Below, piece after piece: positions 6,976 through 64,000 of a stretch of DNA of 64,000 bases. The stretch's first letter is position 1; each line of letters begins with the position of its first letter. The position numbers were made by a program, and so were the translations under genes. Location: positions 28,545-92,544 of the forward strand of contig JBAXAI010000014.1 in the NCBI GenBank assembly GCA_037142615.1, given 5' to 3'. The notes under the pieces were generated by a model. The model did not search any database, was not told the origin of the DNA, and worked only from the letters and a program-made list of their open reading frames with translations. The DNA is from Spirochaetales bacterium. Lineage in GTDB: Bacteria > Spirochaetota > Spirochaetia > JABEVK01.

Positions 6976-9183
6976 TCAGCTGTCCTGCAATGCCGCGAGT
7001 GCGGTGTGGCTCTTGCGCAGCCGTTTTGAGATGACCGAACTGAGGGTTTCGAAGAACTTGGCGGCCGCGTGCGGATCCTTGAGGGCGGCCTCGTCGAAGG
7101 CTTCGCGGCGCAACACGTACAGGCTCACCTTTCCCTGCGCCACGGCATCGGCCGAACGGGTCTCGTTGTCCAAAAACGCCATGTCGCCAAAGAATCCGCC
7201 GCGGTTGAAGGTCGCGAGGTGGAAGCCCTGGTCACCCGCCAGAGGCAGCACGATCTTCACCTCGCCCGACCGGATCAGGTACAGTTCTCGGCCGGCATCA
7301 CCTTTGAGGAAGATCTTCTCGCCGCTTTTCCAGGTCTTGGCCTCGGCGGTATGGCGGAAGCGTTCGACCAGGCCCTCGGGAAAGTCCTCAAAGAGTTCGA
7401 ACTCGGCGAGGTCCATTTCCAGCTGTTCATTGGCGCCGCCCGGGGTCAGCTCGCGGATGGTTTCGTCTTCGGCCCATTCGAGCGCTGCGTCGAGGTCGGG
7501 GCAGAACTTCAGGTTGCTGGTTTCGTCGGTGAGGCCGAGTTCGGCCAGGTACTTCTTGGCGTCAAGGCCGGTGGGAAGGCTGCGCGGAACCGAGGCCAGC
7601 ACCAGCGTGCCGCCAAAGTCCTTGAGCTGGCCCAGAATCTGCTTGAGCATGTTGGCGGCCGTGTAGTCGACCGACTGCACGTTGCGCATGTTGACGATCA
7701 CGTACCGGCTGACTCGGAACGACGACTCCATTTCGGTGTACAGCTGGTCGGCCGTACCGAAAAACAGCTGGCCCTGCACGTCGAACACCATGGTGCGGTT
7801 GCCCGAGCCCTCGAGAATCTGCAGTTCGTCGGTGGGTCGGCTCTTGCGGCTGAAAATGCGATCGCCGGGGATCTTGCGGCGGACGACCGAGGAGCGAAGC
7901 TGGTCGCGCAGGAACAGCACAATGGCGAGCGCGATGCCTACTCCGCTGGCCACGATGAGGCTGAAGCTGAGCGCGGCGACGATGACGGCCAAAATGACCA
8001 CGAAGTCGAACACCGTGGTGCGGTGGCGCAGAAGGTGCACGCTGTGACGGTCGATCATGCGGATGCCCACGACGATGAGGATGCCCGCCAAGGCGGAAAC
8101 GGGAAGCCAGGCGATGACCGGGAGCAACAGCAGAGCGACGATGAGAGAAAAGCTTCCCGACAGCACGCCCGAGAACTTGGTCTTGGCGCCGCTGTTCAGG
8201 TTGACCATGGTGGCTCCCATGGTGCCGGCTCCGGGCATGCCACCCAGGAAGCCGGCGACCATGTTGCCCAAGCCCTGGCCCACGAGTTCTTTGTTCGAGT
8301 TGTGGCGTGAGTGCGTCACCACGTCGAGGATGACGCAGGTTTTGAGGGTGTCGATGGAAAGCAGCGCCGCAAGGGTGAGCACCGGCGTGGACAGCAACAT
8401 CAGATCGGCCGGCCCGAGCGACAATACCTGCCCCCACGAGTTGGCTAGGTCGGTGAAGTAGCCCAGACCCGCCACCGGAATGGCCCCGATGACCATCTTG
8501 TTGTGTTCCAGCACCAGGAGCGTGGGGTCAAACAACCCGAGACCGAAGTAGGTGAGCGTGCCCACCGTGAGTGCGATGATGGCCGCGGGGATGGCCTTTA
8601 TGATCTTGCCCGCCAGCAACATCACCGCCATGGCGACCAGCCCGACGACAATGGCCTGCCAATGCCAGCCCTGCGGTTGGGTAGCCAGCTGCCACAGGTT
8701 CCAGTCCTTGGGGGCGCCCAGCAGTTTGGGAAGTTGACCCGTGACGATGATTAGTCCGACACCGCTGAGGTAGCCGGCCACTACCGGGTAAGGAATGTAC
8801 TTGATGATCTTGCCGCCGCCGAGCCGGCCGACGATCAGCTGCGTGAGCCCGGCCAGCACCGCCGTGAGTGACACCAGCAGCAGGATGCGTGGCGGCGAGT
8901 AACCACCCTGAGCCACCAGTGTGGCCGTGAACACCGAAAGCACGGCCGCCGCGGGAGCGCAGGGGGCCGAGATGAGCCGGGGCGTGCCACCAAAGAGGGC
9001 TGCCACAAGCCCCAGCGCGAAGGCTCCCACAATCCCGCTGAAGGCGGCTTGTCCTGTCAGTTCTGGGCCCAGCGGAGCGAAAACGATGAGGGCGTACGCG
9101 ATGGCTGACGGCAAAGCCACCAGCATGGCAGTCAGGCCGCCGAAAATATCGCCGGACTGAAGGGAACGGTTGGGAGTGCTCAT
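6976..9183 (-). CDS. SulP/SLC26 anion transporter with STAS and C-terminal cNMP-binding domain
   Basis: GDIFGGLTAMLVALPSAIAY, NKELVGQGLGN, STAS GQLFFG, cNMP FFGDMAFL...RSADAVA; start MSTPNRS at 9183. Confidence 0.9.
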   Translation of the reverse strand: MSTPNRSLQSGDIFGGLTAMLVALPSAIAYALIVFAPLGPELTGQAAFSGIVGAFALGLVAALFGGTPRLISAPCAPAAAVLSVFTATLVAQGGYSPPRILLLVSLTAVLAGLTQLIVGRLGGGKIIKYIPYPVVAGYLSGVGLIIVTGQLPKLLGAPKDWNLWQLATQPQGWHWQAIVVGLVAMAVMLLAGKIIKAIPAAIIALTVGTLTYFGLGLFDPTLLVLEHNKMVIGAIPVAGLGYFTDLANSWGQVLSLGPADLMLLSTPVLTLAALLSIDTLKTCVILDVVTHSRHNSNKELVGQGLGNMVAGFLGGMPGAGTMGATMVNLNSGAKTKFSGVLSGSFSLIVALLLLPVIAWLPVSALAGILIVVGIRMIDRHSVHLLRHRTTVFDFVVILAVIVAALSFSLIVASGVGIALAIVLFLRDQLRSSVVRRKIPGDRIFSRKSRPTDELQILEGSGNRTMVFDVQGQLFFGTADQLYTEMESSFRVSRYVIVNMRNVQSVDYTAANMLKQILGQLKDFGGTLVLASVPRSLPTGLDAKKYLAELGLTDETSNLKFCPDLDAALEWAEDETIRELTPGGANEQLEMDLAEFELFEDFPEGLVERFRHTAEAKTWKSGEKIFLKGDAGRELYLIRSGEVKIVLPLAGDQGFHLATFNRGGFFGDMAFLDNETRSADAVAQGKVSLYVLRREAFDEAALKDPHAAAKFFETLSSVISKRLRKSHTALAALQDS

Positions 9184-56003: not shown

Positions 56004-57374
56004 TTACAAGAGCTCGGCCGCCAATTCGGCCAGCTTGCTGCGCTCCGACTTGTCGAGGAACATGTGGCCAAACAGCTCCTGCCCCTTGAAGGCCTCGACC
56101 AGGTAGGTCAGCCCGTTCGAGCTCGCGTCGAGGTAGGGGTTGTCGATTTGGTACGGGTCGCCGGTGAGCACGATTTTGGTGCTGCTGCCCGCGCGGCTGA
56201 CGATGGTCTTCACCTCGTGGGGACTCAGGTTCTGCGCCTCGTCGATGATGATGTACTGGTTGGGCAGACTGCGGCCTCGGATGTAGCTCAGCGCCTCGAT
56301 CTCGATCACCTTCGACTTGATCAGCTGGTCGGTGCTTTTGAGGCTCTGGCTGTGCACCTGCGCGATCAGGTAGTCGAGGTTGTCGAACAGCGGCTGCATC
56401 CAGTTGCTCATCTTGTCGTCCTTGGTACCGGGAAGGTAGCCGATGTCCTTGCCCATCGGGATCACCGGACGGCTGACGAGAATACGGCTGTAGAGCTTGC
56501 TTTCGAGCGTCTGGCTGAGCGCGGCGGCCAGCGCCAGCAGCGTTTTGCCCGTGCCCGCCTTGCCCACCAGCGTCACAAGTTGAATGGACGGGTCGAGCAA
56601 CAGATTGAATGCCAATTGCTGGCGCAGGTTGAGCGGTCGGATGCCCGTGATGGGCTGCACCAGCGCCGGCACACTCCACAGCGCCTTGTCGTGCTTGTTG
56701 AACCGCGTCAGCTGAAACCCCTTGCCTTTGCGCTCGTTCAGCTGCACAAACTGGTTGGCCGCAAGGTCGCGGTCGGTGGGAATCTGTCCGTCGGCTTCGA
56801 GGGCCTTGAACTGGTCGTCGGTGCCCTCCTGCTCGGTGATGCCGGTGTACAGGCTGTCAACGTTGACCTTTTGCTTTTCGTAGTCGACCGCGTTGAGGCC
56901 CAGCGCCTGCGCCTTGACGCGGGCGTTGATGTCTTTGCTGACGAAGAACACGTTCTTGCCGAAGTTCTTCAGGTGTAGCGCGCTGAGGATGATTTTGTTG
57001 TCCATGCGGCCCAGGTCCATGTCGAGCGAAGCGTCGCTGTCGTAAATCATGGCGATGGTGAGGGTTGAGTTGATCTCGGGGATGTAGACGCCCTCGTTCA
57101 GGCGGCCGCGCTTGCCCACACTGTCGATGAGGCGGATGGCCTGGCGCGCGTTGCGGGCGCGTTCCTCGGTGCCACTCTTGAGCTTGTCGAGCTCCTCGAG
57201 CACCCACAGGGGAATCACGATCTCGTTGTCGCGGAACGACATCAGGGCGTCGGGCCGATGGATGAAGACATTTGTATCCAAAACGAAAGTTTTGACGCGC
57301 TTGCCGTCGGCGGGGCGTAAGCCGTGAAGCGGCGTCGCCGAGTTTTTGGGTTTTCCGGGGTGGGTGGTTGGCAT
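56004..57374 (-). CDS. phoH: PhoH family protein with N-terminal PIN domain (PhoH2/YlaK)
   Basis: FVLDTNV, VLEELD, SKDINAR, GKAGTGKT, IRGRS, DEAQN, GDPYQID. Confidence 0.93.
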   Translation of the reverse strand: MPTTHPGKPKNSATPLHGLRPADGKRVKTFVLDTNVFIHRPDALMSFRDNEIVIPLWVLEELDKLKSGTEERARNARQAIRLIDSVGKRGRLNEGVYIPEINSTLTIAMIYDSDASLDMDLGRMDNKIILSALHLKNFGKNVFFVSKDINARVKAQALGLNAVDYEKQKVNVDSLYTGITEQEGTDDQFKALEADGQIPTDRDLAANQFVQLNERKGKGFQLTRFNKHDKALWSVPALVQPITGIRPLNLRQQLAFNLLLDPSIQLVTLVGKAGTGKTLLALAAALSQTLESKLYSRILVSRPVIPMGKDIGYLPGTKDDKMSNWMQPLFDNLDYLIAQVHSQSLKSTDQLIKSKVIEIEALSYIRGRSLPNQYIIIDEAQNLSPHEVKTIVSRAGSSTKIVLTGDPYQIDNPYLDASSNGLTYLVEAFKGQELFGHMFLDKSERSKLAELAAELL

Positions 57375-57387
57375 GGGTGGTCCTTTC

Positions 57388-57690
57388 TCAGCGGCCGAGC
57401 GGGATGACCTTGCGCACCTCGTTGATGTCAACGAGCGCTCCGGTTACGTACTTGTGAACGAGCGAGCCGATGAGGGTCTGATAGGGCATTCCCTCCTGCT
57501 CCGCCAGGCGCTTGATGGCTTCCAGGTCAGCGCCTTCCATGCGGAGAGTGACGGGTTTGCGAACCGAAGCTTCTCGAAGGGACGCCATGAACGTCGATTT
57601 CTCGGAAACCGGGATAGCTTTGCTGAAGTCGATGTTGTCTTCGATTTCCTGCTCCTCTGAGTCGAGGATGGCAGCTTCGTTGGGCTTCAT
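57388..57690 (-). CDS. BrnA/CopG-like antitoxin
   Basis: KPVTLRM...AIKRLAEQEGMPYQTLIGSLVHKYVTG. Confidence 0.88.
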   Translation of the reverse strand: MKPNEAAILDSEEQEIEDNIDFSKAIPVSEKSTFMASLREASVRKPVTLRMEGADLEAIKRLAEQEGMPYQTLIGSLVHKYVTGALVDINEVRKVIPLGR

Positions 57691-57766
57691 TTGGTACCTC
57701 CGTGAAACTTATGCCACGCTCAGCCTTGATCTTTTCATTCTTCGAGTCGTCCCACCCGATTTCCAT
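57691..57766 (-). pseudogene. BrnT-like toxin 5' remnant
   Basis: MEIGWDDSKNEKIKAERGISFTEV then runs directly into the antitoxin RBS. Confidence 0.8.
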
Positions 57767-57847
57767 AAGATAACCTAGTCCTAGTTGTTTGCAAAGTCAA
57801 TACATTGTCAATTAGCTGTGAGTGGTTAGTCAATCAATGATACAGAC

Positions 57848-57926
57848 ACGTTTGTATCCAAACGAAAGTTTTGACGCGCTTGCCGTCGGCGCCGAGTTTG
57901 GGTTTTCCAGGGGTTGTGGTTGGCAT
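57848..57926 (-). repeat. Degenerate copy 2 of phoH 5' end
   Basis: Matches 57268-57374 with internal deletions (79 vs 107 bp). Confidence 0.9.
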
Positions 57927-57982
57927 GGGCCTAAGCCACGAAGTGGCGTGGCCGGGCTCCCGTTCAAGAGTATACGTGAGAT

Positions 57983-58252
57983 TCAGCTTTCATAGACATT
58001 CTTGCGATGACCGATCGCAACGGCCAGGATAACCAGTTGGGAGTCCCGAACGTCGCAGATGACCCGGAAGTCTGCCACCCGGAAGCGCCAGAGCCCCTTC
58101 TTGTCTCCCACGAGGGCTTTCCCTTTGGACCGCGGATCGGGAAGCGGAGCGATCTCGTCCTCGAGATAGTCCAAGATCGCCGCTTGCCACTGCCGGTCTA
58201 GCTTTCGCAATCGTTTTTCAGCCGTGGCCGACAGCTCAACGTTCCAGGCCAA
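57983..58252 (-). CDS. RelE/ParE family toxin
   Basis: AEKRLRKLD, DPRSKGKAL, LWRFRVADFRVI, IGHRKNVY. Confidence 0.92.
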   Translation of the reverse strand: MAWNVELSATAEKRLRKLDRQWQAAILDYLEDEIAPLPDPRSKGKALVGDKKGLWRFRVADFRVICDVRDSQLVILAVAIGHRKNVYES

Positions 58253-58448
58253 GGTCCCTTCTCACGTCTGCCAGCGGACGCCGTGGTTCGCCTCGTTCCA
58301 GGACTGCCAAGGCCAGCAGGTAATCTTCCCGCTCGTCGAGAAAATCGGAGATGGCTTGTTTGACGTAGTAGCTCTTGCTTCGGCCCGTCTCTTGGGCCAG
58401 GCGGGAGAGCTTTTCGTCCATGTTCGGATCCAAGCGGACAGCCAGCAT
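58236..58448 (-). CDS. RHH antitoxin (RelB/TraY-like)
   Basis: MLAVRLD...LAQETGRSKSYYVKQAI...EDYLLA; gtatgac direct repeats upstream (58460-58475). Confidence 0.9.
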   Translation of the reverse strand: MLAVRLDPNMDEKLSRLAQETGRSKSYYVKQAISDFLDEREDYLLALAVLERGEPRRPLADVRRDLGLER

Positions 58449-58548
58449 AATGTACCTCTGTATGACAAGTATGACGCATCCAGTCATCGAAAGCAACAGG
58501 GAGTCACAGGGTCCCGGTTGAATCAAAATGCCAATCAATTACACTGAC

Positions 58549-58655
58549 ACGTTTGTATCAAGCACGAAAGTTTTGACGCGCTTGCCGTCGGCGGGGCGTA
58601 AGCCGAGAAGCGGCGTCGCCGAGTTTTTGGGTCGGCCGGGTGATGTGGTTGGCAT
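58549..58655 (-). repeat. Copy 3 of phoH 5' end (intact frame with RBS)
   Basis: MPTTSPGRPKNSATPLLGLRPADGKRVKTFVLDTNV; 107 bp, about 12 mismatches vs functional copy. Confidence 0.93.
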
Positions 58656-58679
58656 GTGGGGCTCCTTGTCGATCAGGGT

Positions 58680-59110
58680 GCAGAGACCAGGACGTTGGCA
58701 ACCGGCCTTCTCGGCAACCCTAGCATGCCGGGGATCGGCAAGGTCACAAGCAGCGTCCTGATCGGATCCCTCTCGGAGTTAGGGCGCCTCAGCCGTCGTG
58801 CCATCGGCGCACTTGTCGGTGTGGCGCCAATCGCCCGTGACTCTGGAACAAGTCAGGGAAGACGGAGGATCCAGGGAGGAAGGGCGCATATCCGGCGGGC
58901 CCTCTACATGGCAACCCTGACCTCGATCAAATACTCGCCGGAACTGAAGTCTTTCTTCGAACGGATGAGACTGGCGGGCAAGCCCTTCAAGGTTGCCATG
59001 GTCGCCTGCATGAGAAAACTCCTCACGATTCTTAACGCGATGGTCAAGAGCAAAACGATCTGGAACGGGGGGACTGCTCAAGTTCAGACTTGACAAAACA
59101 CACGGTTACT
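58680..59110 (+). mobile_element. IS110-family transposase remnant (C-terminal half) with right end
   Basis: PGIG, LVGVAP..RDSG, RRALYMA, KVAMVACMRKLL; followed by CTTGACAAAACACACGGTTACT. Confidence 0.85.
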
Positions 59111-59202
59111 TACGCCTGTCCCCACGTGAGATCGAGTTGACTAATAGCTCTATTATCTCCATAATTAGAACAATTCACGGTCTCGTGATGCGAGGGACTC
59201 GA

Positions 59203-60534
59203 ATGGCGACTTGGCTCTCGAGGAAAGGCACAGACTCCCGAACCAACCGGGACTATTACCTCAGAACACTTCCAGAACGCTGGAACACTGTAGCTGCCAC
59301 CTTTGCGGTGTTGCTGATTGCCGAACTGTTTTACCTGGCCTATGACTGGCGACTCTTCCCGGAATCTACGAGGGGGCAAGGGCTCGGTCTGGCTACGGTC
59401 GTCAATCACCTCGCACAGTTGGGAGGGGCGGCGTTGCTTCTCCTTCTGTTCTTCCTGCGCAAGCGCCTGCAATTGACTCCTTCCAGCCAGGAGTGGATTC
59501 TGAGGGTCGCGCTGGTCTTCTTCCTACTTTCGTGTACGGCCCATTCCATGTTGAATCAACTCGTGGAGGGCCGCTCGATCGCGCTCTTTCACGTGGGAAT
59601 TATCACCGCGGCCCTCGTTTTCTACGAGCCTCCCCGTGTGATACTTCCGCTTTTTGGTGTCTGTGGGGCATTGCTCCTGGCGGCGATCGTCCTCTGGCAG
59701 AAGAATGCAGACCTTGCTCGCGTTGACGAGACCAACATCGTGGCGGTTCTCCTTGCGGGGACTTTGCTCTACCTTACCTACCATAGGGGCCGGGTTCGAC
59801 TTTACCGTCACGTCCTCGAACTTGCCTCGTGCAGCAAGTTCAAGGACGCTGTGATCCGCGCCTCGAGTCACGACCTCCGGGCCCCCATTTCGCAGATCCG
59901 CGTGCTCTTGGAACAGCTCGAAGAACCGGAAGAGACCTTCTTGAGACAGCGCAGTGAGATCCGGCAACAGCTCGATCAACTCTTCCGCCGGGCGTCGCTC
60001 GTACTCGATAACCTGCTGGCAATTGGAGCCTCGGGCCGCGAAGAACTCCCCTTTCAGCGTCAGATCCTGTCACTGGACGACTTGGTCGAACCTCTCCAGA
60101 AGTCGCTGGCCGCCGAGGCAGCGGGCAAGGCGGTGACCCTCGAGTTTCGCCTGCCGACCGAGGTACTCTTGGTGGGCGATCCGGCTATGCTGCAGAGTGT
60201 TCTGGCAAACCTCCTCGCCAATGCGATCAAGTACTCTCAGCCAGGGAAGAGAGTCACCCTTGACGCCGAAGTACAGCCCACCGACGTGAGGGTTTCGGTG
60301 ACAGACCAGGGAGCCGGTATGGAACCCGAGGTTTTGCGTTGGGTCAACAACGGTCAAGCGCAGCCTCCGCGCAGGGGAACTGCTGGAGAGTTTGGCCTTG
60401 GCATTGGGCTTTCGGTGTGCCAAACTCTCTTGGCCTTTCACGAAAGCACGTTGAACTTCGAATCGCAGCCCGGTGAAGGTACCCGGGTATGGTTCCTGCT
60501 TCCGCGGTTTCTGCATGGTTTTGCTCATGATTAA
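59203..60534 (+). CDS. Membrane sensor histidine kinase
   Basis: Multi-TM N-terminus; SHDLRAP, NLLANAIKYS, DQGAG, GIGL; start uncertain. Confidence 0.88.
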   Translation: MATWLSRKGTDSRTNRDYYLRTLPERWNTVAATFAVLLIAELFYLAYDWRLFPESTRGQGLGLATVVNHLAQLGGAALLLLLFFLRKRLQLTPSSQEWILRVALVFFLLSCTAHSMLNQLVEGRSIALFHVGIITAALVFYEPPRVILPLFGVCGALLLAAIVLWQKNADLARVDETNIVAVLLAGTLLYLTYHRGRVRLYRHVLELASCSKFKDAVIRASSHDLRAPISQIRVLLEQLEEPEETFLRQRSEIRQQLDQLFRRASLVLDNLLAIGASGREELPFQRQILSLDDLVEPLQKSLAAEAAGKAVTLEFRLPTEVLLVGDPAMLQSVLANLLANAIKYSQPGKRVTLDAEVQPTDVRVSVTDQGAGMEPEVLRWVNNGQAQPPRRGTAGEFGLGIGLSVCQTLLAFHESTLNFESQPGEGTRVWFLLPRFLHGFAHD

Positions 60535-60566
60535 CGAAATTCGGCTCTGCAAGCCGGTGGGCTACC

Positions 60567-61241
60567 TCATCCGATATTGTTTCGGAGTCCGAAACGTACC
60601 AATTCGACCGTGGATGAAATGTCGAGTTTTGCCATCAACCGGTGCTTGTAGGTGCTCACGGTCTTTTCGCCGATGGCCAGATCATAGCCTATTTCTTTCA
60701 TAGTCCTGCCCTGGCAGAGCATGGTCAGTACCCGCTGTTCCTGAGGCGACAGGTCATCCAGCATGCCTGTCTTTTGCTCTGCCTGTGGTACAGGCCCGGT
60801 GGCCTGCTGGGCTTGGCCTTGCATGGATACGATAGAGTGGAGGAAGTCCAAACCCTTCCTGGTCATGTAGTATCCACCATTGGCCACGACCCTTATGGCA
60901 TCGCGCATTGTTGCCGGGTCGGAATCCTTGGTTATGTACCCACGGGCTCCTGCCTGCATGGCCCGCAAGGCTAACTCGTGTTCAGGATGCATGGTCAGGA
61001 ACAGTGTGGGCGGAGCGCAGCCCATGGCCTGCAGGCTACCCAGCACCTCAAGGCCATTGGACCTGGCCAGCCCAATATCCAGCAGCAGAACATCGATGTC
61101 TGCTAGCTGAGCGGGAGCTTCCAGCAGCGCTTCACCATCGCTCAGGTCCAGAACGATTCGCAGGTCGTCGGTTTCGGCGCATAGGGTCTTTATCCCTTCC
61201 CGGATCAGAATATGATCGTCGGCTATGGCTATGTGGATCAT
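60567..61241 (-). CDS. NarL/LuxR family response regulator
   Basis: ADDH, LLDI, GARGYITK, LSPQE...KTVSTYK. Confidence 0.92.
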   Translation of the reverse strand: MIHIAIADDHILIREGIKTLCAETDDLRIVLDLSDGEALLEAPAQLADIDVLLLDIGLARSNGLEVLGSLQAMGCAPPTLFLTMHPEHELALRAMQAGARGYITKDSDPATMRDAIRVVANGGYYMTRKGLDFLHSIVSMQGQAQQATGPVPQAEQKTGMLDDLSPQEQRVLTMLCQGRTMKEIGYDLAIGEKTVSTYKHRLMAKLDISSTVELVRFGLRNNIG

Positions 61242-61521
61242 GGCGCCTGGGCCTTTCGGTAGCGAGACTGGCTAAGTGGCATCCTGGTTCCCGTCATGCT
61301 CCATGCCGTCGGAATCGCAACCAGGGGAGCTGGTGCTATCGGTACCACGTGGAATGGTCTTCATCGAGGCATTGTACGGCAAAACGTCAAAAATATCCAT
61401 GTCTTGTTGTCGAAGCGTCAGGAAAATCCTACGTTCTTGTACGTGACTTCAGATCGACTTACGTATAGCCGTACAACCCGCCCCCCACAAACCGATGGTA
61501 ACATTCCGGTAGAGGTAAGTC

Positions 61522-62973
61522 ATGAAAACACATACGTCTCGACTGGCATCGGTTCTGGTGGTCATTCTGGCCCTGTTCATAGTCCTGGTACTGGGGGCTT
61601 GCGTTGGGCCCATCGATGAAACCCCTGTCACCCCTGTCATCCCTGTCATCCCTGTCATCCCTGTCATCCCTGTCATCCCTGACATCCCTGACACTGTTTT
61701 CGGGACCGATGGCGTGGCCCGTCCACTGGGAACCTGGACCCTGCCGGCAACCTTGGACACCAATAAGACAGCCATCGAAGACATAAACTTCTATGGCTCA
61801 GCAGTGGATTCGGCGGGCAACATCTACGTTGTCGGCCTCTATAAATACAAGAACTACTCCGACATCGAGGAAAAAAACGTCATGGTCGTCAAGTACACGG
61901 CCTTGGGTGACATCGACACAAGCTTCGGTACCGCCGGCGCCTTTTTCTTTGTGGGAGACGACTATACGGTCAGCTCAGTTGGCGGAGCCTGGGATGAGTC
62001 TTGGTTCAACGATAACTATGCCCCTGTCATCGCGGTGGACGCGGCAGGCAAGATATACCTGGCTTTTACGTCCTGGTACACCCAGACCAGCTTTGTGGGT
62101 TATTACAACAAGGATGCCTGCCTCATCCGCCTGACTTCCACCGGTACCCTTGATACCACCTTCTCCGAAAACGGCGTGGATTTTTACGGCAGCACAAGCG
62201 CGGGCACCCGCTACGTGGTCAACGGCCTCCTGCTGGACGCCGACAAGCCCTATGTGTACGGGTACAAGGCCGTCGCAGATGACCCAACCGCTGCAACTCC
62301 GATCTATACCTATTCCCGGGTTGTCATAGCTTACGCGGGTACCGGCGCCTCGCCTTCAGCCGTTCTGGCAAGCGGTACTTTCGATTCAACTTTAGACCCG
62401 GACAACACCCAGTTCAACTACGCCGTGGCCGACGCCACGTACTTCTTCCTGGCCAACGTGGACAACGGCTATGTCGAGAAGTGGACCAAGGCGGGTGTGT
62501 ATGTTTCCGGCGACATCAGCCTGCCCCTTACCAATGAGGAAGCCCTGGTCATGGCCATCGATGGCACCAAGTTGGCCACCTACAGTGCCGTCTGGGACTC
62601 AGTTGCTTCGGTATACAAGACAAAGAAAATCCGGCTTTGGGACACGACAACCATGGCTGCGGCTTCCGGTTTTACCGCCGTCAGCCTGGCCGACACCGAC
62701 CGGGTAAGCGGCCTGCTCTTTGTCAGCGATGGCATCTTGGTGTTCGGGAATGTGGCGGTGAGCGGCTCGGCGGTCACTCGGCCCACGGTCTGGAAGTTCA
62801 CGCTGGACGGAAGCGCTGACACGACCTTCGGCACCAATGGCGTGCTGACATCCAGTGCCGTGGACATGACTCCCTATGGTTGGGCCCAGCCCGATGCCAG
62901 CACCCTGATCCTGTCCGGACAGGAAGGCACAGGACCATATTATGCCGGTGTAACCTCTCTCAAACTGAACTAG
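61522..62973 (+). CDS. Surface lipoprotein with delta-60-like beta-propeller repeats
   Basis: Lipobox LGAC; GDIDTSFG, GTLDTTFS, GSADTTFG repeats. Confidence 0.8.
   Translation: MKTHTSRLASVLVVILALFIVLVLGACVGPIDETPVTPVIPVIPVIPVIPVIPDIPDTVFGTDGVARPLGTWTLPATLDTNKTAIEDINFYGSAVDSAGNIYVVGLYKYKNYSDIEEKNVMVVKYTALGDIDTSFGTAGAFFFVGDDYTVSSVGGAWDESWFNDNYAPVIAVDAAGKIYLAFTSWYTQTSFVGYYNKDACLIRLTSTGTLDTTFSENGVDFYGSTSAGTRYVVNGLLLDADKPYVYGYKAVADDPTAATPIYTYSRVVIAYAGTGASPSAVLASGTFDSTLDPDNTQFNYAVADATYFFLANVDNGYVEKWTKAGVYVSGDISLPLTNEEALVMAIDGTKLATYSAVWDSVASVYKTKKIRLWDTTTMAAASGFTAVSLADTDRVSGLLFVSDGILVFGNVAVSGSAVTRPTVWKFTLDGSADTTFGTNGVLTSSAVDMTPYGWAQPDASTLILSGQEGTGPYYAGVTSLKLN
61624..61695 (+). repeat. 9-bp tandem repeat (CCTGTCATC) x8 encoding PVI linker
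   Basis: PVT-(PVI)5-PDI-PDT. Confidence 0.95.
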
Positions 62974-63099
62974 GGTAACAACCTCGGCAACGCCGAGCTG
63001 AACCAGTTTTGGGCGCGTACAACTGCGGAGGCACGGGATCGTCGCTCAAAGCGCACCGGGTGTGGTGGTTGGCACGGGGTGCCACTCCTCTGAAACTGG

Positions 63100-63255
63100 G
63101 CGAAGTCGTGAGCCGATGAACCCAACCGCTGAGCTTGCCAACGCCACACAATTTCGAATAGCCGCATCGTCAAGCTTGTGCCGAAGTGGGTACCTGGTTT
63201 TCACCGCGAAGTCGGCCACCAAGGACCGAATAGTCCCGTACACGGCCTGGGGCTT
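63100..63255 (-). pseudogene. Possible HEPN-domain C-terminal remnant
   Basis: DFAVKTRYP...A...A...VGFIGSRL resembles the HEPN YAVxxRYP tail; no N-terminus. Confidence 0.45.
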
Positions 63256-63257
63256 CC

Positions 63258-63554
63258 TCAGTGGCTCATCAGCTTGATGGACTGGATGATGCTCTTCTCA
63301 TCGACCAACTGCCTCGTGACGAACTTGTGCAGGATACTGGAGATGAGAGTCTGGTAGGGCAGTCCTTCTCTAGAAGAGATGCTCTTCAGTCGATCCAGGT
63401 CAAACTCAGAAATCCTGATGTTGATGTTCCGGGTCTTCTTGATCCCATCCAGCATGCTTTCAATTTTAGCGAGCTTCTCACCCTTAACCGAAACGAAGTT
63501 CTCGGCAACGTTCTCAAGGGACTGTTCGTAGGCATCAAGCTTGATTTCGGTCAT
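63258..63554 (-). CDS. BrnA/CopG-like antitoxin
   Basis: KTRNINIRIS...REGLPYQTLISSILHKFV. Confidence 0.9.
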   Translation of the reverse strand: MTEIKLDAYEQSLENVAENFVSVKGEKLAKIESMLDGIKKTRNINIRISEFDLDRLKSISSREGLPYQTLISSILHKFVTRQLVDEKSIIQSIKLMSH

Positions 63555-63817
63555 ATCGTTACTCCATAGATTTGATGGTATTTCCTGCTGGGATAGATGG
63601 TCTTCAGATCGAGCTCACCGTCATCGCTAAGTAAAAAGGGGATGCAGTAGGTGTAGTCTTTGAATTGACAGACGAAGATCATCTGGTCGGGTCGAGCTTT
63701 GTTCTCGACGATGTCTAGGAAGTCCTTGTTTAGGATTGTCTCCACAAAGTCTTCGAAGGAAATCCCTCTGGTCTTCACCAGGTGGGCATCTTTCTCCTCG
63801 TCCCATATGATTCTCAT
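63551..63817 (-). CDS. BrnT-like toxin
   Basis: WDEEK...RGISFED...LKTIYPSRKY; TTGACA-N17-TAGATT promoter upstream. Confidence 0.88.
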   Translation of the reverse strand: MRIIWDEEKDAHLVKTRGISFEDFVETILNKDFLDIVENKARPDQMIFVCQFKDYTYCIPFLLSDDGELDLKTIYPSRKYHQIYGVTI

Positions 63818-64000
63818 GTGCATGAAATCTACTACAGGAAGTATACATTGTCAATGTTGTCACGCGAGCGGCACCAGTACCTCACGCCAACCGACAAATA
63901 CTATTCATCTGTATAGTATTCGTTGCACTTCACGCTTGAAACTACGCTGCCCGGACTCAGCTCTGGACCCTTCATCTTCGATTCGAGGGGCATCCTGTGT

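Follow-up and report, generated by a model that had tools for sequence, protein, structure and literature searches.

Small toxin-antitoxin cassettes stacked at the start of a PIN-PhoH gene in a Spirochaetales genome

A 64,000-nt stretch of a Spirochaetales genome (GenBank assembly GCA_037142615.1, contig JBAXAI010000014.1, positions 28,545 to 92,544; hereafter, the window) carries a gene for a PIN-PhoH protein (phoH) whose beginning occurs three times, with small toxin-antitoxin (TA) genes between the copies. How did this gene come to have displaced copies of its own start upstream, and did the DNA between them arrive as mobile units? An earlier note on this DNA had suggested that integrase-less cassettes accumulate here at an attachment (att) site inside phoH. 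We compared the window with the rest of its source genome (G000, a freshwater metagenome-assembled genome, MAG, of 76 contigs), with the genus-mates G002 (also a MAG; loci L040, L041, and L070), G003, and G004, and with the array-bearing loci L059, L061, L062 (a metagenome contig), L066, L067, L068, and L069. In G000, C14 denotes the contig of the window and C35 a second contig with an array (locus L009). The reading that we favor, with a probability of roughly 0.6, is site-specific accretion of integrase-less cassettes, mobilized in trans, into an array at the PIN-PhoH start.

Three phoH starts with a common junction

The match to phoH ended at one GT dinucleotide in all three copies (57268-69, 57848-49, and 58549-50), with junction-to-junction spacings of 580 and 701 nt. 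Copy 3 was 89% identical to copy 1 across 108 nt. Beyond the GT, the displaced copies 2 and 3 continued into a common arm (GTCTGTATCATTGATTGAC... and GTCAGTGTAATTGATTGGC..., respectively). This arm repeat (D4) covers 28 nt with 89% identity, or 14/17 over the stretch given in the earlier note, which had placed the three copies, their break, and the arm correctly. A degenerate pattern from both window junctions matched those two only, with 0.00 matches expected (100 shuffles); the pattern was derived from the same two junctions, and the figure measures their rarity and is no independent test.

The conserved part of the arm spans 24-27 nt and exists in two types, A (GTCTGTATnATTGATTGACTTTT) and B (CTTTRTTCTGAGTTTRAACCCC). 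The arm reads as a discrete module, because L069 and L067 were identical at 26 of the 27 nt directly after the junction with unrelated cargo beyond, and because type A occurred in G000 at four sites only, all of them array junctions and each behind a phoH piece. Type B (CTTTATTCTGAGTTTAAACCCC) was found at a G002 junction that adjoins a recombinase gene, in L059 and L068, and, before a MazEF unit, in L069. At the type-A junction, GATACAAAC-GT-GTCTGTATC, a 9-nt imperfect inverted repeat (8/9 positions) surrounds the non-palindromic GT. The symmetry of attB was weak in a comparison by hand. For comparison, large serine recombinases cross over at a non-palindromic 2-bp core between imperfect inverted repeats, and their elements encode, beside the attachment site, an enzyme with Resolvase, Recombinase, and zinc-ribbon domains.

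Homologues of PIN-PhoH were present in 31 of the 41 related genomes. The functional N-terminus in G000 begins with MPTT, and G000 was alone in this among the 29 phoH loci of the class that were read; this N-terminal type looks element-borne, judging from its distribution. PhoH2 is a conserved housekeeping-type gene, and the array shows that its promoter and N-terminus have repeatedly been replaced by incoming DNA.

The MPTT starts are of a long and a short type, and copy 2 is short. We rejected the idea that it arose by a 27-nt deletion: the short N-terminal subtype (MPTTxPxKPKLGADGKRV...) is present in many further copies, the 27-nt difference is an insertion of a hairpin resembling repetitive extragenic palindromes (REP-like) in the long subtype, and copy 2 shows no decay beyond the loss of 1 nt. 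The REP-like hairpin (25 nt, GCGACGCCGCTTCnCGGCTTACGCC) lies inside the long-type coding start, where it adds 9 codons (57306-57330 and 58595-58619). G000 has 12 copies of it; at its other sites a second hairpin usually comes next. The genus-mates carry the element too.

The array proved larger than the three copies of the earlier note. The search of G000 with a nhmmer profile built from ten junctions revealed 3 junctions on C14 and 7 on C35 (E <= 1e-4), every one on the phoH strand, and C35 carries at least 7 further phoH 5' copies over about 10 kb. G002, L062, and L068 had 6-7 junctions each. Among 30 inter-junction intervals (not de-duplicated; L062 and L068 are near-identical, as are L061 and C35), 22 measured 580-1303 nt, three about 1.72 kb, and five 3.2-4.7 kb. 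These five intervals, at least one of which was a recombinase-bearing island, go against the earlier proposal that the array is made solely of tiny TA units.

Repeats of this kind could be an artefact of assembling or binning a MAG. G000 is in 76 contigs, C35 ends in the array, the contigs of G002 break at the repeat, and one Logan contig (X1) joins 57929 to 63083, with 31 nt on the shorter side, unlike the window. We consider this explanation very improbable. The same junctions and units recurred in independent assemblies, namely G002, eight metagenome contigs, and Logan contigs of four runs from three studies; Logan contigs spanned 58163-58593 and 58576-59136 (X1) and 58564-61594 (X2); and the copies differ at many positions, hence are not collapsed duplicates. 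The earlier note had itself named an assembly artefact as a risk, and the recurrences do not bear it out. Logan loose ends at 57268 (X2, X4) and 57829 (X3) were rejected as new variants, being C35 junctions of G000.

The eight metagenome contigs, all from JGI/ENA lake metagenomes, came from junction-pattern scans. In metagenomes, 11 stretches matched and eight were real arrays; L060, L064, and L065 were dropped as chance matches or simple repeats. In genome contigs, seven stretches matched, with a real array in G002 alone, and the remaining six were rejected as single matches in unrelated taxa without phoH context. The runs containing the locus are freshwater or lake metagenomes. The protein pattern K-T-F-V-L-D-T matched 13 of 401 genomes of the class, of which only G000 (7) and G002 (2) had multiple copies; this is an undercount, since other N-terminal spellings escape the pattern.

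Units present, absent, and reused among relatives

The comparison of relatives revealed both occupied and empty sites, as the earlier note had anticipated. In G003 and G004, phoH has an N-terminus of MSN type and no displaced copy upstream. L062 has a 767-nt unit, composed of a type-A arm, BrnT, BrnA, and an MPTT phoH start, that G002 lacks; the flanks of the two loci agree at 99.0% over 2814 nt on one side and at 99.1% over 1560 nt on the other. The start that was displaced in L062 belongs to the MSNNLE type, the one in use in G002.

Cassettes were also reused in different contexts. L066 and L067 are identical at 100 of 100 positions to the right of the GT and at 39 of 100 to the left, so that one cassette stands behind two phoH 5' alleles, and the breakpoint at the switch lies within the 5 nt AATGT. 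The cassette BrnTA(a) is next to phoH in both G000 and L062, with different upstream neighbors. Cassette order varies, with RelE then MazEF in L069 and MazEF then RHH in L062. An 821-nt AbrB-PIN unit is found in C35 and L061 and not in L062 and L068, and its boundaries are exact unit boundaries. The earlier claim of discrete units at one dinucleotide in phoH, each with a replacement 5' end, was upheld by these loci. Because of the 767-nt difference between L062 and G002 and the reuse of a cassette in L066 and L067, units can be said to move at a size of 0.6-0.8 kb, as judged from locus comparison.

Array segments of G000 and L062 were 98.6-98.7% identical while their phoH genes were only 83.5% identical, which indicates, on these identities, recent horizontal transfer of array segments between lineages. 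The segments of high identity to L062 are 62856-63856 of the window (a BrnTA-like pair and a stretch 'X') and 31302-33580 of C35 (L009; a membrane protein and an AAA/DUF4143 ATPase).

G002 shares this architecture. The end of one of its contigs (its own C14) overlaps another that starts with phoH (C15) by exactly 149 nt. This overlap (L070, L041) is the phoH start repeat, and an assembly break would be expected there if strains that have a further cassette occur together with strains that lack it.

Candidate recombinase and proposed mechanism of accretion

The target is the PIN-PhoH start, at the codons of the conserved VLDTNV motif. A unit consists of the 24-27 nt arm, its own promoter, cargo (usually one TA pair), a ribosome-binding site, and the first 80-107 nt of phoH. 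As to mechanism, we infer that units travel as circles; there the phoH piece would abut the arm, giving an attP of about 50 bp. The circle would recombine with the chromosomal phoH at or beside the GT of AAYGT, pushing the old start outward and joining the start of the cassette to the gene. Here attL resembles attP and attR resembles attB, as the cassette brings 80-107 nt of the left side of its target. The phoH gene would stay intact, be read from the TA operon of the cassette, and accept the next unit, so the array would grow at the phoH end. TA addiction would prevent the loss of units.

The enzyme may be a large serine recombinase supplied in trans; in the relative G002, the decayed remains of one adjoin such a junction. 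There, a gene with a Resolvase domain (8e-14) begins 45 nt past the junction; it contains one TAG in frame and breaks off after about 215 aa. The remnant is 85% identical to its relative P0001 (88% over residues 1-191), an intact protein of 520 aa with Resolvase, Recombinase, and Zn_ribbon_recom domains. The best phage matches of P0001 were annotated integrases with about 26% identity, and the phage and plasmid collections gave only matches of ~24-30% identity to annotated integrases or recombinases. In 401 genomes of the class, the recombinase fragment matched nine, the best outside G002 being 39-44% identical, and a VLDTN-like motif was absent from the flanks at all eight loci with fragment matches. 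The earlier note had predicted a large serine recombinase beside the arm; one was found, but as a pseudogene and beside a type-B arm, not the type A of the window. Mobilization by IS110 elements and bridge RNA was also considered and dropped: G000 has one 3' fragment, and none was noticed among the open reading frames (ORFs) of L040 and L062, where no scan for IS110 was made.

Behind the G002 remnant lie a 94-aa ORF without a Pfam hit, Crp-, amidase-, and cyclase-like genes (by eye), and a truncated AAA ATPase. The unit with this ATPase is also in L062 and C35, there without a recombinase, so at least one multi-kb recombinase island integrated at the site and then decayed. In L059 (1532-5758) and L068, at least 5.8 kb of seemingly metabolic genes (by eye), with no recombinase among them, come after a type-B arm; ORFs of this island, also read by eye, include an AraC-type regulator, a 1104-aa TPR-containing protein, and a dehydratase-like gene.

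Such islands raise the possibility that each small unit is what deletion left of a large island with a recombinase, namely the addictive TA pair and the ends, and that no unit moved at a size of 0.6-0.8 kb. The G002 junction, with its recombinase remnant, four genes, and truncated ATPase, shows that a larger island was once at the site; the recurrence of the ATPase unit without a recombinase, the island of L059 and L068, the five intervals of 3.2-4.7 kb, and the visible decay of toxin genes fit the same scheme. We regard it as unlikely. The 767-nt unit is present or absent between backgrounds that are 99% identical, and a 100% identical cassette stands in two phoH contexts. Every small unit has an intact 24-27 nt arm directly before the TA promoter, for which deletions would need an identical start nucleotide, and type-A arms are unlike the arm beside the recombinase.

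Several findings weigh against accretion by a recombinase acting in trans. One group concerns the enzyme. No array recombinase was found on C14 or C35; in the whole of G000, the only Resolvase-domain gene encodes a 194-aa invertase-like protein on C57, and the 10 Phage_integrase (PF00589) matches all lie outside these two contigs. P0001 matched nothing but the G002 remnant in 12 genomes of the order and nothing in 401 genomes of the phylum (E <= 1e-50), and searches of viral contigs with the recombinase fragment and the arm pattern gave no match. The remnant adjoins a type-B arm, and a type-A arm was never seen beside a recombinase. Circular or attP junctions were not found among assembled contigs, which cannot show circles. 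The G002 fragment likewise had no match in G000. Of the earlier reading, the structure and the mobility of the units hold up, and the proposed enzyme is plausible, with no tie to type-A arms.

The second group concerns the site. Conservation of the arm could partly reflect promoter function, as it contains the -35-like TTGACT. In canonical large serine integrases, the half-sites of attP and attB are of different type and have little in common beyond the core, so that attL and attR are unlike either. The phoH site does not match the directionality control of these enzymes, because its attP and attB have one left half in common. In addition, the 15-20 nt to the left of the GT had, within a genome, a single variant at both ends of a cassette, and the variant changed from genome to genome: TTCGT(T)TTGGATACAAA on both sides in G000, TTTGTGCTCGATACAAA on both sides in L062, and TTTGTACTAGATACAAA at the empty G002 site, which has two differences in this stretch from the otherwise 99%-identical L062. 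This pattern suggests, as far as the aligned copies tell, conversion or homologous exchange in addition to site-specific recombination. The sameness itself (57850-57869 versus 57270-57289; L062 and G002 junctions) is unexplained by simple exchange at the GT.

Homologous recombination could, in principle, do all of the present work. With no dedicated recombinase now, RecA would loop out and re-insert units through the phoH repeats (45-107 nt), transformed DNA would swap units, and the junctions would have formed once, long ago. Every unit is flanked by long direct repeats, internal units disappear exactly at repeats, G000 yielded no recombinase, and the shared 15-20 nt variants fit such an exchange, as does the comparison of C35-6039 with G002-4334, which share the arm and 20 nt leftward and diverge beyond. 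We nevertheless judge this explanation improbable, a step further from likelihood than deletion relics. After a homologous crossover, sequence from the cassette would be expected to the left of the GT, whereas the similarity of L066 and L067 breaks within 5 nt of the GT, with six differences in the next 15 nt leftward. Conservation of the arm holds across unrelated cargo and stops sharply after 24-27 nt, and in G002 a serine recombinase gene lies exactly at such a junction.

A polar array of short, promoter-proximal, TA-rich cassettes also has a superficial likeness to a chromosomal integron, in which a tyrosine recombinase, IntI, is encoded beside attI and the attC sites fold into imperfect hairpins as single-stranded DNA. 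Sedentary chromosomal integrons typically contain TA pairs. The chance that this is an integron or an integron-type system is nonetheless close to negligible: there was no tyrosine recombinase on C14, on C35, or in 12.7 kb of L062; the single-stranded DNA of five junctions folded no more stably than shuffles (z -0.53 to +1.39); and the repeats consist of the 5' end of a gene instead of attC, in cassettes that bring their own promoters. The earlier note was right that attC and IntI are lacking. Compared with an integron, the phoH array shares a polar sub-kb arrangement, additions beside a fixed site, and TA cassettes, which are common in large chromosomal arrays; it differs in having no IntI and no folded attC, in carrying its own promoters and a piece of the target gene, and in having its target inside a gene.

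The nearest described systems are the ssrA islands of Dehalococcoides, with SCC and pseudo-SCC arrays also close. In Dehalococcoides, several islands lie in tandem at one single-copy gene, with a direct repeat of the end of that gene at the borders of each, and a serine recombinase of ~540 aa, DsiB, a CcrB homologue, adjoins attL (PMC3146451). Some of these islands are without an integration module and are discussed there as cis-mobilizable and joined by accretion. As described in that source, they use the 3' end of a tmRNA gene, a 20-bp repeat, and multi-kb islands (PMC3146451). The phoH array uses the 5' end of a protein gene and replaces 80-107 nt of it; most phoH units are TA pairs of 0.6-1.3 kb, and a recombinase is absent from most of the phoH arrays. 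Units 1 and 2 and most of the 30 intervals have no recombinase, as in the accretion of cis-mobilizable elements (CIME-like). A further trait of such elements, mobilization by the recombinase of a related autonomous element, has indirect support here in the presence or absence of units and in their reuse.

In staphylococci, large serine recombinases (Ccr) integrate SCC elements at the end of rlmH (orfX) and regenerate the gene, and SCC elements that lack ccr form tandem stacks, which Ccr acting in trans can mobilize. SCC differs in its target, a 3' end with a short repeat, in its element size of 3-60 kb, and in its hosts, the Firmicutes. SCC and the ssrA islands are serine-recombinase arrays with integrase-less members, and the earlier statement that the phoH array has no known parallel was too strong.

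Other elements share single traits, among them insertion into a conserved gene or a tRNA, which is then restored. Islands with dusA-specific integrases restore the 5' end of the gene (PMC4482086), and in tycheposons repeated integration pushes older elements outward and leaves partial target copies and degenerate remnants (bioRxiv 10.1101/2020.12.28.424599). In what these two sources describe, the elements are at kb scale and mostly carry a tyrosine recombinase each; they are not integrase-less sub-kb arrays.

What appears new at phoH is the miniaturization to single TA operons with a short arm, the replacement of the start and promoter of a protein gene, and an integron-like scale in an uncultured spirochaete lineage. 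Full-text literature searches, which do not cover supplements, returned no description of cassette arrays at phoH. To our knowledge, sub-kilobase gene-capture cassette arrays have so far been essentially synonymous with integrons. A further proposal, which we offer tentatively and hold to be possible rather than probable, is that the system is a serine-recombinase functional analogue of the integron: promoter-bearing circles of 0.6-0.8 kb would circulate among freshwater Spirochaetales, with an attP of ~50 bp that is half phoH start and half arm, and each insertion would swap the phoH N-terminus and place the gene under a TA-regulated promoter. If serine-recombinase att sites sustain the same lifestyle, cassette platforms would be convergent and may be common in uncultured lineages, with TA pairs as their minimal self-stabilizing passengers. 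The locus would then also offer a compact natural attP/attB pair and, in P0001, a candidate integrase.

Cargo and neighboring features

The features of the window are listed in Table 1. The cargo consists of adjacent small genes with family matches, the arrangement of type II TA systems. The earlier note had described each unit as a TA pair, which is true of unit 2, where both Pfam matches are above the cut-off; unit 1 retains an antitoxin and a 21-codon BrnT remnant. The unit 1 antitoxin is ~92% identical to a cassette in L062, L059, and L068, and 13 nt separate its stop from the phoH ATG, with no terminator-like site found between the two.

Table 1. Features of the phoH array and its surroundings (window positions)
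Feature	Position	Strand	Evidence
PIN-PhoH (PhoH2-type) gene, array target and recipient	56004..57374	-	Pfam PIN_4 (residues 30-166, 2e-30), PhoH (residues 245-444, 9e-49)
Functional phoH 5' end, copy 1, MPTT-long type; attR and next attB; GT junction 57268-57269	57268..57374	-	
Unit 1 antitoxin, CopG/BrnA-like	57388..57690	-	PF12441 E 2.4e-5, 25.5 bits, below Pfam 28-bit cut-off
BrnT toxin remnant, 21 codons	57704..57766	-	Internal 184 nt missing by comparison with the intact BrnT (87 aa) of L062
Type-A arm of unit 1, GTCTGTATCATTGATTGACTAACC; carries -35-like TTGACT	57824..57847	-	
Displaced phoH 5' copy 2, MPTT-short type, 1-nt deletion	57848..57926	-	nhmmer E 1.1e-20
REP-like hairpin upstream of phoH copy 2	57928..57952	-	
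Unit 2 toxin, ParE/RelE family	57983..58252	-	PF05016 1.1e-14, 55.2 bits
Unit 2 antitoxin, ribbon-helix-helix (RHH)	58236..58451	-	PF01402 4.7e-8, 33.2 bits
Type-A arm of unit 2, GTCAGTGTAATTGATTGGCATTTT	58525..58548	-	
Displaced phoH 5' copy 3, MPTT-long type, reading frame intact	58549..58655	-	nhmmer E 1.6e-21
28-nt 3' end of PIN (VapC-like) gene, AbrB-PIN cassette remnant	58672..58699	-	Identical 28 nt end the PIN gene of L009 (10596-10991)
IS110-family transposase 3' fragment (5'-truncated), truncates array	58700..59093	+	PF02371 5.8e-17
Detached array fragment: second BrnT/BrnA-like pair (63551..63823, 63258..63554) and non-coding stretch 'X'	62856..63856	-	

The cargo pairs on C35 are VapBC, AbrB-PIN, MazEF, BrnTA, RHH-RelE, and HEPN/nucleotidyltransferase-type, and its larger blocks contain an AAA ATPase with DUF4143 and AraC- and SDR-like ORFs (read by eye). 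In L062, the pairs above the cut-offs are PemK/MazE, PIN/MazE-type, and HEPN/nucleotidyltransferase; its BrnT matches PF04365 with E 3e-4, below the cut-off. Toxin decay was seen in the BrnT of G000 (57704-57766), in L062, where RelE is absent beside RHH (8393-8600), and in the BrnT of G002. We infer that toxins decay first and antitoxins persist, which fits addiction modules. In G002 (L040 12255-12620), a phoH start continues in frame into BrnA, the arm, promoter, and BrnT having been lost.

The array of the window formerly extended past copy 3 and was then cut, because the 3' remnant of a PIN gene and an IS110 fragment follow this copy. The three copies are the proximal end of a larger array that was cut by an IS110-linked rearrangement, and the G000 array is probably static now. 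A tblastn search found no second IS110 copy in G000. C35 terminates within the array, and its end and the end of C14 do not overlap. The detached fragment was 98.7% identical to the array of L062 over 1001 nt. Between it and the IS110 fragment lie genes for a histidine kinase (Pfam), a LuxR-type regulator (by eye), and a putative secreted protein of 483 aa.

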